From sequence record OR896837.1: DNA of 64,000 nucleotides, one strand, 5' to 3'. A model generated the notes under the pieces. The model was not told the DNA's origin. It saw only the letters and a program-made list of their open reading frames with translations, and made no database searches. The stretch is from Escherichia phage vB_Eco_mar004NP2. Below are positions 10,257 to 57,122 of this stretch, one piece after another. The translations under genes were made by a program, and so were the position numbers. Position 1 is the first letter of the stretch. Every line of letters begins with the position of its first letter.

Positions 10257-10285
10257 TTGCTTAATCCTATAATTCTTGATATAAT
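10257..10285 (+). promoter_or_regulatory. sigma70-type early promoter
   Basis: TTGCTT 10257-10262, 17-nt spacer, TATAAT 10280-10285. Confidence 0.45.
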
Positions 10286-11472: not shown

Positions 11473-11501
11473 TTGCTTTCAACTCAGTTTTGTTATATAA
11501 T
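11473..11501 (+). promoter_or_regulatory. sigma70-type early promoter upstream of ligase subunit A
   Basis: TTGCTT 11473-11478, 17-nt spacer, TATAAT 11496-11501, leader tatttatataaattaatgagag. Confidence 0.5.
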
Positions 11502-50136: not shown

Positions 50137-50588
50137 TATAAGAACCTTGCGAATCCTGATTTTGTTTCAGTCTTGACTTGTGTCTTTTCTTGAGGATTCT
50201 GTAATTTGTCTTTCTGCTTTTGAACCCACGCTTTTTGCTTATTAGCAGAAAATAAAGGAGGTTCTTTTGTGTAAACCTTATGTAATAATTGGTGATGGTG
50301 CTGGCACAATGTTACCACGTCCCTAACTAACTCATGCTCATATTTCTTGTAGAATGCTTCCCTATTTGAAAGGACGATATTCTCATCAGTGAAATCCAGC
50401 TGGAGTTCTTTAGCAAATTTTTTTATTAGCTGAGATATAGTATGATAATGGTGAAGTTCTAGGTCTTCACTACTACCACATATAGCACAGCAACCATCCT
50501 TACTATACCTAGATTTTATACCATCCCTCATTATGGAAATGGCATCACGTTTGTACTTAGTATTAGTGGCCATAATCCTCCAATCCAA
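50136..50588 (-). CDS. HNH endonuclease (free-standing, homing-type)
   Basis: CCAICGSSEDLELHHYH ... CQHHHQLLH: HNH signature with zinc-binding Cys pairs. Confidence 0.7.
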   Translation of the reverse strand: MDWRIMATNTKYKRDAISIMRDGIKSRYSKDGCCAICGSSEDLELHHYHTISQLIKKFAKELQLDFTDENIVLSNREAFYKKYEHELVRDVVTLCQHHHQLLHKVYTKEPPLFSANKQKAWVQKQKDKLQNPQEKTQVKTETKSGFARFL

Positions 50589-51237
50589 AGCTACTTAGAA
50601 AGATTACTATATCCTCAGGAGCAACATTAAAAAATTCCGTGCTTCCTGTAAAATTAGAAAACCCACAGTTTTTATTATAATATTCTCTGTGAACTTCCTT
50701 TTCTAAATCTAAAGCAGTCTCTCTATCTGGCAGATGATACATGGTGAACAAGTATAGGTCAGAAAATCCAGATTCTCTTTTAACTTCATTCAGCCGTTTC
50801 TCAGGGTATAAGCTTATGCCTACTTTAGTACCACTAGAGGAGGACATGATATAGAGGAATCCGCCATTCTCCCACTTAAGAGAACAATAAGGACATCTCT
50901 TACCTTGAGTCAATCCATCTAAGGTAATTAAACAGTCATGCCCATTATTGCAGCGTAGATGTAGTTTTGTTTTAGCATTAGTATAGCTGCTTAACAGAGT
51001 ATACCCTATATTAGATATTCTGTTATTAACTTCATCTAACGATATTGTATTATTGGAGCAGTGTGGACAACCTCTCCCCATATGGAGTATAGAATGTGGT
51101 GTTGCTTCCCAAACATGTGCTCTCTGGCATTTAAATACTGTTTTTGTACGTTGGTTTACATACTCACCGACAATTTGGATTCCACGATCAGCTAATCTAA
51201 TATTTATATCTTTTATTGTTAGCTTTTGTCGACCCAT
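50563..51237 (-). CDS. Putative zinc-finger endonuclease (homing-endonuclease-like, possible GIY-YIG-type C-terminal half)
   Basis: Two CPxC pairs; C-terminal GGFLYIM...GTKVGIS...R...E block reminiscent of GIY-YIG; weak. Confidence 0.45.
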   Translation of the reverse strand: MGRQKLTIKDINIRLADRGIQIVGEYVNQRTKTVFKCQRAHVWEATPHSILHMGRGCPHCSNNTISLDEVNNRISNIGYTLLSSYTNAKTKLHLRCNNGHDCLITLDGLTQGKRCPYCSLKWENGGFLYIMSSSSGTKVGISLYPEKRLNEVKRESGFSDLYLFTMYHLPDRETALDLEKEVHREYYNKNCGFSNFTGSTEFFNVAPEDIVIFLSSFGLEDYGH

Positions 51238-51408: not shown

Positions 51409-52725
51409 TTATTTACCACGGGAAATAGAGTAAATTCCATAGCGCAGTGCATCACAAAGGTGAGAGTTAGCATCATGACGTGGTTTTTCACGTGATAATT
51501 TTTCTTCACCTTCTTGGAAATCCCATTTATAGTTCTGCAACGCATGGATTAATGAGGAACATGAAACATCTACAATAATCTTGCCTTGTTGGAATAGCGC
51601 TTGCAAGCATGCTAGGCCATCTAGGACAGATTTTTTAGCAGGGGCTGATGCAATTTCATGTTCATAAGCTAAGTCCTGGCGGAACTGAGCTGCCGCGGAG
51701 TCAACAAAAATACGATCAACTTTATAACGATCTATACAGTGCTGAATGTAAGCAGCATGCTGAGCTGTAGTTTTCTCCGCCTGCTGATACTCTTCTAATA
51801 CATAGTAAGTATCCGTATCGTAATGATACTTAATAGTAAGAACTGCTGTAGGATCACGATAACCAACGTCGATACCAAGCAACGTTTCGAATGCTTCATC
51901 ATCTTTAAAGAAATGACGCATACCCTTAAGGTCTTTAACATGGTCAATAGCATTGAAAGTATCAAAAATCTGACCTTCAAATACAGAGAAGTCAGCTTCA
52001 TATTCCTGGCGGAAGTAGTTTTTACTAACCGTACGACGTGCTTCTTCTATATCATTCAGGTCAGCACGAGGGTTATCACGATATGTACCATGAATAGATA
52101 CCCAGTTAGGCAACGTATCATCAAATCCGTAGGCGTAAAACTCTTTAAACCAGTTACCTCCACGAGGTGTGGAAATAAATAGAGCCTTAGAATTAGGTTT
52201 ATCTAGAGTAGGACGCAGCTGAACCCTGAAGGCATCACCACCCACATCGGAAATTGCCGCCTCGTCAAAGATGATAAAATCATATGAACGTCCAACCGCG
52301 GAGTCAGCCTGAGCAGCGGAAGCTAGTTTAAACAGAGAACCATTAGCTAACTCAATTTCCTTATCTTTAGCGTTCTCACGTTCAGTTTGTAGGCCATATT
52401 TTTTAATAAGACCACGAATCTGAGACCATCCGATGTTGGCCAGTGAATAGTTAGGAGCAACTACTAACACCTTCACATTAGGTTCCAGCAATTTTAGGAA
52501 CCCAAGAGTATATGCGATGAAGGATTTACCTACACGGCGTGATACACACGCCGTTACAAAACGATGTCTAGGATCCTCTAGAGCATTAATAATCGCTATT
52601 TGAGGACCATTAGGTGTAATACCTTCTTGTGCTAGTATTCCCGAAACAGGTAGACGAAAGAAACGTTTATCTATTCCGAAATCAATAACATCTACTGTAT
52701 TAACGTAAGGTCTTGATACTTCCAT
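51409..52725 (-). CDS. Terminase large subunit
   Basis: 438 aa; ATPase Walker A (ACVSRRVGKS) and nuclease half. Confidence 0.85.
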   Translation of the reverse strand: MEVSRPYVNTVDVIDFGIDKRFFRLPVSGILAQEGITPNGPQIAIINALEDPRHRFVTACVSRRVGKSFIAYTLGFLKLLEPNVKVLVVAPNYSLANIGWSQIRGLIKKYGLQTERENAKDKEIELANGSLFKLASAAQADSAVGRSYDFIIFDEAAISDVGGDAFRVQLRPTLDKPNSKALFISTPRGGNWFKEFYAYGFDDTLPNWVSIHGTYRDNPRADLNDIEEARRTVSKNYFRQEYEADFSVFEGQIFDTFNAIDHVKDLKGMRHFFKDDEAFETLLGIDVGYRDPTAVLTIKYHYDTDTYYVLEEYQQAEKTTAQHAAYIQHCIDRYKVDRIFVDSAAAQFRQDLAYEHEIASAPAKKSVLDGLACLQALFQQGKIIVDVSCSSLIHALQNYKWDFQEGEEKLSREKPRHDANSHLCDALRYGIYSISRGK

Positions 52726-53207
52726 TACTTCTTACCTCCAGTAGCTAGGGAAGTAATTAAGTCCATGTAGTTTTGATCCCCAGCTCCAGCAATAATATTA
52801 TTCTGGATGTTGGTCTGGTTAGCTGGAGTACGGGCTGCTGCCTTCACTTTCTCCAGTTCTACCATCATTTTCATTTCTTCCATTTTCATTTTATGTGCTT
52901 TCCAGAGAATATCCATAATATCTTGGTCAGAACCCATGCCAGTTTCTTCTAGTTCCTCTAGTTTACGCTTGATAACTTCATCCAGAACACCAAATAAACG
53001 ATCTCTGTTACGGAAACCACTCTCCATAAAAATATCATTTAAGTAGTTCTTAACTTCACTACGATTCATAATATCTCGAAAAGCAATTTCGGACATCCCA
53101 AGACTACGTGCGGCAGAAGGCACATCGCTGCCACACTGTAAATATGCTTCAATTACATCCATCCCTTCAGGGGACATAAGATCTGGTACTAATACATCAT
53201 TTGCCAT
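52725..53207 (-). CDS. Terminase small subunit (putative)
   Basis: 160 aa with N-terminal HTH-like segment, immediately upstream of the large subunit with overlapping stop/start. Confidence 0.55.
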
Positions 53208-53217
53208 ATTTCCTCCT

Positions 53218-54975
53218 TTAGGTAAGGCGTTGAACTGTTACTCTTAATCTCGGTAGGAAAACTGCACTACCTAAACTTACGTGCATAACTACCCCTAACT
53301 CTACATTTCCATTCCCCAGATTTTTAGCAGTATATATAAAACTATTTCTACTTAGGGCATTGTTAGGTGTGTACCTAAAAGCAGATGTAGTATGAAAAGG
53401 TACTAAATACCCTACTGGTAATGTTAAAATCTGGTGGAATATTGCATCTCCATTACTATAGCTATATGCTCTTCTTCCTTGCACTTGAAACACACCGTTA
53501 TTCCATGTATTAGCAGGAACACCTGCACAGTTAAGGTTACCTGATATAACTTCAGTGGTAAGAATTACTGTAGCATTGCCACCCGGTATACCTAGCCCAA
53601 TAGTTGATAAACCAACGTATCTATCCCCTGTTCCCGGGTAGCTGGGAGTAATATCATCCCCCATGTAAGAGCTACCTACATTTCCACCAAAAAGTCGTAA
53701 TGGAACTGCTGATGGTCCCCAAACAACCCCGTGTTCATTACCGATAGTATTATCCCTAGAGTTTACATACCATTGCTTACCCGCTCCGAATTTGTAAATG
53801 CTAATTTGGGATTTAGCTCCACCATAGTCTACAGGAGACCATAATCCTCCATTACTAGACCCTACAAGTTCACACCTTGCCGTGGTATCCCCAAAAACCC
53901 CGGTATACGCTGCGTTATTTCCTATATACTCCATATCAGGACGGTAACCTAGGTTACCAAAAGCATTCTGATTTATAAATTTATACCCGGTATTAGGGAG
54001 ACTTACCCCTTTAATTATGAAATTAGAAGGAGATATAAGAATATCAGAACCAGTAAAGGGGTTGCCTGAAATACTCATTCCACCATTAGAGTACCTTAAA
54101 TTAAGAACATACCAAATAACCTTAGTAGGGGTTATATTATACCAATCCTGTAGTATTGTAGAGTCACCCGACTGGTTAGCTAAATTAGTAGTAGATCCCC
54201 TACAAACAAATCTGTTCCCACCGTCGTGGTACATAGTATTTACATTACCTGGGAGCCCTTGTCTAACCCCACCGTATCCACGTATATTAGAGTTGCAAAC
54301 ATAAAACCAATCATGCCCTCTATGTGCTGCTCCTAGAGGCGACATCCATCCAGGATCCCAATAGTACGGGTTATTCCCATCTACAGGTACTGTGCTACTA
54401 TTAGTAGGAAAACCTAATTGTGCAAAGGCTTCTGCAACAGTAACACCTACAGGAGCTCCCGCACCAGGCCTAACTATCCCATGGTAGGTACTATGTAACG
54501 TAGTACCACCTGTACCACTCCTAGAGATAGATTCTTCGTGCCATATCGATGGGTTATAATTATAAGTTCCAGATGCTAGACTATTACCAAATGCAAATCC
54601 ACTGGTTTGAGAAACACTAGCAAAAGATCTAAAGGGGTCTGCTTGAGTGGCAACTATAGTTTGACCAACTTTACTCTGAGTACCATTAAGAAAAGCTCTG
54701 TGAGTACCATTAATCTCAATAGCAGTTAGTATAACTCTACCAGGATCATTAGATTTAATATTTACTATATCAGGAGGCATCTGACATACGAAAAACCCAT
54801 TCCCGGCATCACCTAATCCTGCCTCATAAGTACCCTCAACTAGAACAAATGGCATATCACTATGAAAAATACTATTATTACTTGGACTATAGTGACGATT
54901 AATGTCACCCCCAGATTCAGTATTTAAAGATAGTACGGTCTTACCATCGCTATACTTTCCAGCGAAAAAACCCAT
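53218..54975 (-). CDS. Receptor-binding tail protein (T5 pb5/Oad-like)
   Basis: 585 aa, divergent from the adjacent lipoprotein gene as oad/llp are in T5. Confidence 0.6.
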
Positions 54976-55000
54976 ATAATCTCCTATTATAAAAATGTAT

Positions 55001-55029
55001 TTGCTTTCATCCCTCTATTTTGCTATAAT
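55001..55029 (+). promoter_or_regulatory. sigma70-type promoter for the llp-like gene
   Basis: TTGCTT 55001-55006, 17-nt spacer, TATAAT 55024-55029, conserved leader aattcataaattagaaatggagag. Confidence 0.5.
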
Positions 55030-55060
55030 AAATTCATAAATTAGAAATGGAGAGATAAAT

Positions 55061-55327
55061 ATGAAAAAGTTTGTAATTGCACTAGTTGCCACAGTTATAT
55101 TATCTGGTTGTGTACCTGCTCCCAAACCATTTTGTACGGGATTTGTAAAATCTTTTGGTGGTGCGGGAGAAGAATATTACGGTCTCAAGGTTCAAAAAGT
55201 TCGTATTAAGGGAGATCGCTTTCCAGTAGTACAGCTCCGTACTAAATTTGGGTGGTGGGATCTCAGTCAGTTTGACCTTAAATATGGTGATTGTAAATTT
55301 AAACTAGAGCAATCTAATTACCTGTAA
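55061..55327 (+). CDS. llp: Lipoprotein, Llp-like (receptor-blocking superinfection-exclusion protein)
   Basis: Signal peptide with lipobox ILSGC; 88 aa; divergent from the receptor-binding protein gene. Confidence 0.65.
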   Translation: MKKFVIALVATVILSGCVPAPKPFCTGFVKSFGGAGEEYYGLKVQKVRIKGDRFPVVQLRTKFGWWDLSQFDLKYGDCKFKLEQSNYL

Positions 55328-55494
55328 TTAGTATAAAACAAAAAGACATCCAAGTAAACTAAATTTTTTATTTCTTGGATGGTATATTGGCAGAAACCAC
55401 TATGTAAGAAAAGTAGAAGTCCTTCTAGGAGTCCACAAGCACGGTTGGTTATGCACATATTTTAAAATATCACATTTATGGGAGCACGAAAGAT

Positions 55495-55623
55495 ATGTCA
55501 AACAAAAGAAATAATAGACGCGGAGAGGTGTATGAGAGTTGGATAAATAGTTTTGGGTTCGGAACTCTCCTATTCTTTATTTTCGTAGGTTTTTGGTTAG
55601 CAGCTATGGCGGGGTGGATTTAA
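55495..55623 (+). CDS. Small membrane protein (42 aa), first of four overlapping tiny genes
   Basis: Own translation MSNKRNNRRGEVYESWINSFGFGTLLFFIFVGFWLAAMAGWI; ggag 10 nt upstream; below ORF-track size cut-off. Confidence 0.3.
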   Translation: MSNKRNNRRGEVYESWINSFGFGTLLFFIFVGFWLAAMAGWI

Positions 55624-55730
55624 TGGAATGGGTAATTATTGCACTATTAGGGATTGTGATTATTGGGCAATGTATTTTAGATAATCACTTAGCTAGAATT
55701 GAAACTTTATTGCTGGAGAAACGTAAATGA
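55623..55730 (+). CDS. Small membrane protein (35 aa)
   Basis: Own translation MEWVIIALLGIVIIGQCILDNHLARIETLLLEKRK; TAATG overlap with upstream stop. Confidence 0.25.
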   Translation: MEWVIIALLGIVIIGQCILDNHLARIETLLLEKRK

Positions 55731-55921
55731 TGGAAGTGGCAGCTACATTAATAGTAATATTAATCTGGGCAATTTTCATTGTTTCTTATACCGCGTATGT
55801 TCGCCTAAAAACTCTAGAGGCCCAGGTAAAGCAGCAACAATTTGCACTAGAAAAATTAGTAGAGCTTCAACGCTGTGATAGTACCCGTATTCTGCAAATT
55901 GAGAGGGAATTAGATGTTTAG
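55727..55921 (+). CDS. Small single-pass membrane protein (64 aa)
   Basis: ORF track; N-terminal TM helix then coiled-coil-like tail; ATGA overlap with upstream gene. Confidence 0.45.
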   Translation: MMEVAATLIVILIWAIFIVSYTAYVRLKTLEAQVKQQQFALEKLVELQRCDSTRILQIERELDV

Positions 55922-56159
55922 TATTGTAATTGCTTTTATTATCGGGATACTCGCGGGAGTTTTCGGGACGACTGCGGCAATCAATAAGCATCGTAAATAT
56001 ATTGCGGGAGTGACGCGGGAGATTGCGGAAAGGGAGCGGAAGTTTGACGAGAAACGTGCGGAGTTTGAGCGGGAGTGGTCGGATGGATCTCGGGCGTCGC
56101 GGAAGAGATTCCGTGAGTTCAGACCAGAATACAGGTTTGATGACCCTTCTATGCGCTAA
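55914..56159 (+). CDS. Small single-pass membrane protein (81 aa) with Arg/Glu-rich tail
   Basis: ORF track; N-terminal TM helix; 3' end lies in the first copy of the 76-bp tandem repeat. Confidence 0.45.
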   Translation: MFSIVIAFIIGILAGVFGTTAAINKHRKYIAGVTREIAERERKFDEKRAEFEREWSDGSRASRKRFREFRPEYRFDDPSMR

Positions 56160-56264
56160 TTTGACTTTTGCCAATTTCTTTGGATTACGTGAGTTCAGAC
56201 CAGAATACAGGTTTGATGACCCTTCTATGCGCTAATTTGACTTTTGCCAATTTCTTTGGATTAC
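56113..56264. repeat. Perfect 76-bp tandem duplication (2 copies)
   Basis: 56113-56188 is identical to 56189-56264. Confidence 0.95.
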
Positions 56265-56387: not shown

Positions 56388-57122
56388 TTAGGCAACTTTT
56401 AATTTCTCAATATATTGTTGAGGACTGCAACTATATTCTGCGCGTTCTTCCTCGGTCATACCTTCCCAGCATAATTTTAAACGGTCAGCTAGGAATTGAT
56501 AATCATTATCATCGTCGAGAGATTCATCAATAAAGGTTTCACCTATCAATGCCACGCCGATTGATAGAATATCATTAACGGCTTGTGCGTCCAGCGTTTT
56601 AAATCCGTATGACGCTGCCGCTGATAGCACGCCTTTATGATCATCAATCATTGTAAAATCAGCGTTAGGATATAACTGTTTAAATAATTCAAAATAATAA
56701 GATTTATATACTGCGTCTTTGCTGTGGTATATTTCGCTAACCTTATCAGCTTTAAAATATTTGTGTAGTGTATCGCGGGAAAATACGCGGATATTACTAT
56801 TACCACGACCGCGCAACCCTTGTTTACGCAAGAAATAATAGTCCGACTTACTCATCAGTCGAGCGGTGCAAATAATGTTTAAAGTATTTGCGTCATTCAT
56901 GCACTGGCGCATATATTCAACCAATGGCAATAAAGTATCTTGCATTATTAAATGGTGTTTACACGCTTCATTTTTATACTTATTTAAATCTAAATTGCCC
57001 TCGCTATCAAAGCAGGGTGCTATACGATGGAAAGAATTAATGATAGTGCCGTCTAAATCCCAAATCATGACGCGGGAAATATGCGGGAAGCTGCGGGAAA
57101 GATTCATGATAGCTTTATTCAT
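56388..57122 (-). CDS. dmp: HAD-family 5'-deoxyribonucleotidase (T5 Dmp-like)
   Basis: 244 aa; HAD motif I WDLDGTI near N-terminus; sits in a pre-early-type module with A1/A2-like genes. Confidence 0.7.
   Translation of the reverse strand: MNKAIMNLSRSFPHISRVMIWDLDGTIINSFHRIAPCFDSEGNLDLNKYKNEACKHHLIMQDTLLPLVEYMRQCMNDANTLNIICTARLMSKSDYYFLRKQGLRGRGNSNIRVFSRDTLHKYFKADKVSEIYHSKDAVYKSYYFELFKQLYPNADFTMIDDHKGVLSAAASYGFKTLDAQAVNDILSIGVALIGETFIDESLDDDNDYQFLADRLKLCWEGMTEEERAEYSCSPQQYIEKLKVA

Follow-up and report, generated by a model that had tools for sequence, protein, structure and literature searches.

The locus analyzed here raises the question of which outer-membrane receptor is targeted by its two divergent genes. 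It is located in a 64,000-nucleotide stretch of phage DNA, which was analyzed as a whole and is herein referred to as the window. In the initial annotation, the two genes were described as a receptor-specificity cassette equivalent to the T5 pair pb5 (Oad)/Llp, with a receptor that may differ from FhuA. The equivalence to the T5 pair is borne out by the protein families found, PHROG 4815 and PHROG 1119, and by the T5-like gene order.

Gene Order and Expression Signals

The following features were found in the cassette and its surroundings:

52725-53207, (-) strand: terminase small subunit gene (terS); ORF, annotated so in the 99.9% identical record NC_048205
53218-54975, (-) strand: gene for the receptor-binding protein (RBP; pb5/Hrs family, 585 aa); ORF, protein begins MGFFAGK
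54980-54984, (-) strand: ribosome-binding site (RBS) of the RBP gene, GGAGA, 4 nt upstream of the ATG, sequence reading
55001-55029, (+) strand: putative llp promoter, TTGCTT-N17-TGcTATAAT; T5-type early sigma-70, extended -10
55049-55054, (+) strand: RBS of llp, GGAGAG, 6 nt upstream of the ATG, sequence reading
55061-55327, (+) strand: llp (88-aa lipoprotein); ORF, protein begins MKKFVIALVATVILSGC
55495-56159, (+) strand: four small ORFs of about 42, 35, 64, and 81 aa, in the orientation of llp

The RBP gene and llp are located back to back, with an 85-bp spacer between them (54976-55060). The RBP gene is followed immediately by terS and terL in the same orientation, as seen from the ORFs of the window and from the RefSeq record of vB_Eco_mar004NP2 (herein mar004NP2). 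The oad gene of T5 likewise precedes terS/terL without a change of strand, and the assignment of the 585-aa protein to the pb5/Oad position was thereby confirmed. The complete layout, with the RBP gene, terS/terL, llp, and the small ORFs, is the same in BF23, DT57C, and T5.

The 2.4-kb stretch at 53100-55500 has 99.9% DNA identity to mar004NP2, Salmonella phage SPLA5b, and PMBT29, and over the final 24 kb of the window, identity to mar004NP2 and SPLA5b is 99.0%. The cassette is distinguished from that of mar004NP2 by two SNPs, both inside the RBP ORF, and no functional difference is expected from them. Taxonomically, mar004NP2 belongs to Tequintavirus (Demerecviridae, Markadamsvirinae). In its RefSeq record, the products of the gene pair are labeled "receptor binding tail protein" and "Cor superinfection exclusion protein."

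The four ORFs that follow llp have annotated homologues in mar004NP2, DT57C, BF23, and T5; those of T5 are T5.159-T5.162, described in the T5 record as single-transmembrane proteins. No terminator-like structure was found between llp and these ORFs by a terminator scan and RNA folding, and the fold of the region 3' of llp (55320-55470) was not more stable than those of its shuffles (z = -0.54). A 46-aa ORF on the opposite strand (55318-55458, (-) strand) was left without support and was rejected.

Three further observations were made in the vicinity. A 76-nt tandem duplication (copies 56107-56182 and 56183-56258, 99% identical) spans the stop codon of the 81-aa ORF (55914-56159; a membrane protein according to the T5 record) and is located just ahead of the region matching the terminal-repeat boundary of BF23, DT57C, and T5. 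The same unit is present as a single copy in mar004NP2, which is otherwise 99-99.9% identical, as well as in DT57C, BF23, and T5; the duplication may be genuine, or it may have arisen in the assembly close to the repeat boundary. From 56388-57122 ((-) strand) onward, pre-early (first-step-transfer) genes, annotated in mar004NP2 as deoxynucleoside-5'-monophosphatase and DNA transfer protein, directly follow the ORFs on the llp side. This order indicates that in the source assembly the terminal repeat is collapsed, or that the assembly is circularly permuted, relative to T5. Finally, an endonuclease-like ORF (224 aa, 50563-51237, (-) strand) is intact in the window; in mar004NP2 it is split by a 1-bp deletion (indel near 51098) into two CDSs, annotated as "homing endonuclease" and "hypothetical protein."

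A sigma-70 promoter specific to llp had been proposed in the initial annotation, and the present analysis agrees with this prediction. The -35 hexamer TTGCTT (55001-55006) and the -10 hexamer TATAAT (55024-55029) were found by sequence reading at a distance of 17 nt, with a TG at 55021-55022 that makes the -10 element an extended one. TTGCTT/TATAAT hexamers, preceded by a stretch rich in A and followed by ATTCATAAAT, constitute what we take to be the classic strong type of T5 early promoter, e.g., PN25. This promoter was not listed by a generic sigma-70 scan because TTGCTT matches TTGACA at three of six positions; the total hits of the generic sigma-70 and terminator scan were at or below the shuffle expectation. 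The pattern TTGCTT-N16-18-TATAAT has five exact occurrences in the window, with 0.14 expected. Besides the one upstream of llp, these are:

482-510, (-) strand: TTGCTT-N16-18-TATAAT match
2678-2706, (+) strand: TTGCTT-N16-18-TATAAT match
10257-10285, (+) strand: TTGCTT-N16-18-TATAAT match
11473-11501, (+) strand: TTGCTT-N16-18-TATAAT match

In an alignment with the BF23 record DQ097178, the llp hexamers fall exactly on the columns of its annotated llp -35 and -10 elements, and both hexamers are invariant across BF23, DT57C, and T5. The excess of the pattern, the alignment with BF23, and the invariance of the hexamers together support the llp promoter. Thus, llp has a predicted sigma-70 promoter of its own and would not depend on the transcript of the RBP gene, whose product we infer from homology to be a late protein. 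The published cloning primer BF23Llp42-F (GGAGAGATAAATATGAAAAAGTTTGTAATTGCACTAGTTGC) has an exact match in the window that starts at the RBS of llp, at 55049 (PMC4728585).

The Lipoprotein and Blocking of the Receptor

The 88-aa product of llp has the following features:

residues 1-16: signal peptide
lipobox: LSG followed by Cys17 (codon 55109-55111)
further cysteines: Cys25 and Cys78

In agreement with the initial annotation, the protein has a lipoprotein signal peptide and a lipobox with Cys at +1. Residues 1-17 matched the Pfam family LPAM_1 (lipoprotein lipid-attachment site; E = 1.6e-4, above the curated cut-off), and this motif was the only Pfam match of the protein. Gly16 and Cys17 are invariant among 11 Llp homologues. 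The protein belongs to PHROG 1119 ("Cor superinfection exclusion protein," E = 7e-24) and is nearly identical to the characterized Llp proteins of BF23 (95.5%) and DT57C (96.6%); its identity to the Llp of IrisVonRoten is 96.6%.

The earlier impression that the lipoprotein is unlike T5 Llp held for the pairwise comparison, with an identity of 22.2% and a window protein that is 11 aa longer. It did not hold at the level of families, as T5 Llp also belongs to the Cor family PHROG 1119 (E = 1e-19). The low pairwise identity accounts for the lipoprotein not having been recognized from sequence in the initial annotation. A profile of 11 BF23-type Llps was aligned with T5 Llp by hhalign with a probability of 90%, with the signal peptide supplying much of the score, and the fold similarity between the two proteins is weak. 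Cys25 and Cys78 are invariant among the 11 homologues and align with both cysteines of T5 Llp, the mature form of which contains the disulphide Cys11-Cys58; this conserved pair would therefore correspond to the T5 disulphide. Searches of PDB sequences with Llp (phmmer and the profile of 11 homologues) returned signal-peptide matches only, and T5 Llp was not found among them. A large protein search with Llp yielded 10 clusters only, all at least 60% identical, and did not reach distant Cor proteins.

The activity of this type of lipoprotein is known from other phages. Cloned llp of DT57C reduced the plating of BF23 and of DT57C-group isolates more than 100-fold and left T5 unaffected (PMC4728585). 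BF23 Llp is also described as blocking BtuB-dependent phages in the same paper, where Mondigler et al. are cited (PMC4728585). Receptor blocking by BF23-type Llp is experimentally established, for related proteins of other phages.

According to the proposed mechanism, early transcription of llp would be driven by the strong sigma-70 promoter that precedes it, and the lipoprotein would be exported and lipidated at Cys17. In Lol sorting, Asp at position +2 acts as the avoidance signal. Since Llp has Val at +2, and thus no Asp Lol-avoidance signal, it is predicted to be sorted to the inner leaflet of the outer membrane. There it would inactivate BtuB as a phage receptor, most likely by binding the periplasmic face and plug of BtuB and folding the extracellular loops over the RBP site, by analogy with T5. 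Superinfecting BtuB-dependent phages would be excluded in this way, and progeny would be spared adsorption to debris. This periplasmic "reverse allostery" on BtuB is what we infer from the T5 system, and an extension of the mechanism to other TonB-dependent transporters was proposed in the paper on the T5 structure.

The blocking could also proceed by another route: instead of jamming the plug on its periplasmic side in the manner of T5 Llp, the lipoprotein might block BtuB at the cell surface, mask it, or degrade it. The weak link to T5 Llp in both fold and sequence is compatible with this route, and no BtuB-Llp structure was found in the PDB sequence searches with the window Llp and its profile. 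An early in vitro study, cited in PMC9586334, also placed T5 Llp outside the cell. Such surface action or masking is considered rather unlikely, and the periplasmic mechanism is preferred.

The Receptor-Binding Protein and the Terminal Receptor

The 585-aa protein is a full-length homologue of pb5/Hrs. It matched PHROG 4815 ("receptor binding tail protein") over residues 1-585 (E = 9e-272), as T5 pb5 likewise matches this family, and it matched the solved T5 pb5 chains 8b14_B and 8a8c_B in a HMMER search of PDB sequences (E = 4e-50). No Pfam family was matched by the RBP. The length of T5 pb5 given in the initial annotation (640 aa) was correct, and the window RBP is 55 aa shorter.

The identities of the RBP to its homologues are as follows:

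mar004NP2 RBP: 99.8%
IrisVonRoten (BASEL phage Bas32) RBP: 97.8%
DT57C RBP (586 aa): 73.5%
BF23 Hrs (595 aa): 66.4%
Yersinia phiR2-01 RBP: 54.8%
T5 pb5 (640 aa): 30.0%
Klebsiella phage RBPs: about 29%
S124 RBP (FepA type): 27.8%

Thus, the homology search against the pb5/Llp families that had been suggested in the initial annotation groups the RBP with BtuB binders (55-98%) and not with the FhuA and FepA types (28-30%). Across phage records, the identities form discrete groups. At least 90% identity was found in 104 records, and 60-80% identity in 293 records (the DT57C, BF23, and Epseptimavirus types). Identities below 60% were found in 143 records in all, including the T5/FhuA type (about 30%), S124, and the Klebsiella phages. 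The window RBP is a third, common allele of the BtuB clade, beside the BF23 and DT57C alleles; among these, it is the most common one in Tequintavirus. The same clade includes the RBPs of EPS7, phiR2-01, and the BASEL T5-like phages.

Residues 109-269 and 532-585 of the window RBP were left without alignment to T5 pb5 by HMMER. These segments would approximately coincide with the site of the FhuA-inserting loops L1, L2, and L4 of T5 pb5, a correspondence taken from global-alignment offsets and not from residue-by-residue mapping. The tips of L1 and L2 are placed at Gln115 and Phe170, and L4 at residues 570-590, in PMC9586334. In comparison with BF23 Hrs, identity is 32-54% over residues 100-250 and 58-60% over 450-550, vs. 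80-88% elsewhere; these least conserved segments partly overlap those that are unaligned to T5 pb5.

The terminal receptor of the phage is almost certainly BtuB. For the RBP allele of the window, this assignment is made because of its 97-98% identical relatives (Bas32) and its cognate Llp; BtuB dependence and exclusion by Llp were both shown elsewhere, on 95-98% identical proteins from other phages. BtuB is listed as the terminal receptor of IrisVonRoten (Bas32) on E. coli K-12 (PMC8594841, S5 Table), and the same phage is described as BtuB-dependent in PMC10373560. For DT57C and DT571/2, BtuB was identified from btuB mutations in resistant hosts (PMC4728585). BtuB is also the receptor of BF23 (PMC10644984), and phiR2-01 is BtuB-dependent according to the title of the paper describing it (PMC8624392). 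In a 2026 preprint, genome-wide screens yielded 23 BtuB-binding Demerecviridae with RBPs about 30% identical to pb5; according to the same preprint, pb5 itself is carried only by T5 and CEV2.

The RBP, as the tip of the straight central fibre, would bind BtuB, the TonB-dependent vitamin-B12 transporter, irreversibly, and this binding would trigger the ejection of DNA. By analogy with the pb5-FhuA complex, the RBP may insert loops into the extracellular lumen of BtuB.

Two other receptor assignments were considered. The RBP could have moved to another or an additional receptor, such as FepA or another TonB-dependent transporter, with the inherited BtuB-blocking Llp retained in a mismatched module. 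Recombination between hrs and llp is documented (PMC4728585), and Llp with at least 90% identity occurs in 180 records vs. 104 for the RBP, as such a shift would allow. Nevertheless, all characterized RBPs of the clade, down to 55% identity, are BtuB-dependent; Bas32, with the same RBP allele, is listed as using BtuB; and DT57C, which combines a diverged RBP with the same Llp, still uses BtuB. A FepA-type RBP in particular was rejected, given the identity of only 27.8% to the S124 RBP. A shift of receptor is therefore very improbable.

Even less probable is FhuA, the receptor of T5, which was proposed in PMC12980165 for the 97.3% identical RBP of Citrobacter phage Cit2 (cassette at 319-2428 of OP745948) from a reported identity of 96.9% to the T5 RBP. 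However, direct alignment with T5 pb5 (NC_005859) gave 30.6% for the Cit2 RBP and 30.0% for the window RBP. The values of PMC12980165 for BF23 (66.7%) and DT57C (73.2%) match the identities computed here; its "T5" comparator was therefore probably a T5-like phage with the window allele. Moreover, the Llp of Cit2 is 100% identical to BF23 Llp, T5 is unaffected by DT57C Llp (PMC4728585), and IrisVonRoten, with its 97.8% identical RBP, is listed with BtuB. On the recomputed identities, the FhuA assignment of PMC12980165 was rejected; Cit2 would most likely use BtuB. Near identity to T5 pb5 and Llp, named in the initial annotation as evidence against a change of receptor, was found for neither protein (30.0% and 22.2%). 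Its suggestion that the receptor may differ from FhuA was well founded, with BtuB indicated by the Llp and by the RBP of IrisVonRoten.

Relation to Known Systems, Modularity, and Significance

With BtuB as the receptor, we regard the pair with high confidence as a BF23-type hrs/llp host-recognition module of Tequintavirus. In BF23 (DQ097178; Mondigler et al., 2006; BtuB), the gene order, divergence, llp promoter hexamers, and RBS are as in the window. The flanking terS and the small downstream ORFs are also the same, and the two RBPs are full-length homologues; the difference is in Hrs itself, which has 595 aa vs. 585 aa and 66.4% identity. The RBP of DT57C and DT571/2 (KM979354/KM979355; Golomidova et al., 2016; BtuB) is nearly equal in length to that of the window, with 586 aa, but represents a distinct allele (73.5% identity). 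The T5 pair oad (pb5)/llp (FhuA; structures 8A8C, 8B14, 8A60, and 7QJF) has its architecture, position, promoter hexamers, and protein families PHROG 4815 and PHROG 1119 in common with the window, whereas its RBP is longer by 55 aa and its receptor is FhuA instead of BtuB. The mechanisms are presumably the same: loops of the RBP enter a TonB-dependent transporter, which the lipoprotein then inactivates.

Records with Llp at 90% identity or more (180) exceed those with RBP at this level (104), which indicates that the same type of Llp is associated with several different RBP alleles. For example, BF23, DT57C, and vB_SpuM_X5 have a 94-97% identical Llp paired with a 66-74% identical RBP. The RBP alleles paired with one Llp type differ by 27-34%, mainly at residues 100-250 and 450-550. 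This pattern agrees with the recombination point between hrs and llp that was proposed by Golomidova et al. (2016; PMC4728585). The pairing of one conserved Llp with several RBP alleles that have diverged is compatible with blocking at a face of BtuB that is itself conserved. It is conceivable, though we advance this only tentatively, that the RBP alleles differ in the extracellular loops or the BtuB variants on which they dock across E. coli, Salmonella, Shigella, and Citrobacter, while one Llp neutralizes all of them through the conserved periplasmic face of the plug. If true, such varied docking with one Llp would be natural evidence for the "reverse allostery" of T5/FhuA on BtuB.

The module as such is already known, being described and annotated in public records with nearly identical GenBank sequences, and the result matters mainly for correct annotation, with little beyond. 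In this respect, the literature claim that Cit2, with the same RBP allele, uses FhuA fails direct sequence comparison. For users of the phage, the assignment means that BtuB is needed as the terminal receptor, that loss of btuB gives resistance, and that other T5-like phages dependent on BtuB will be excluded from infected cells. Knowledge of receptor, resistance, and exclusion is useful for the design of phage cocktails.
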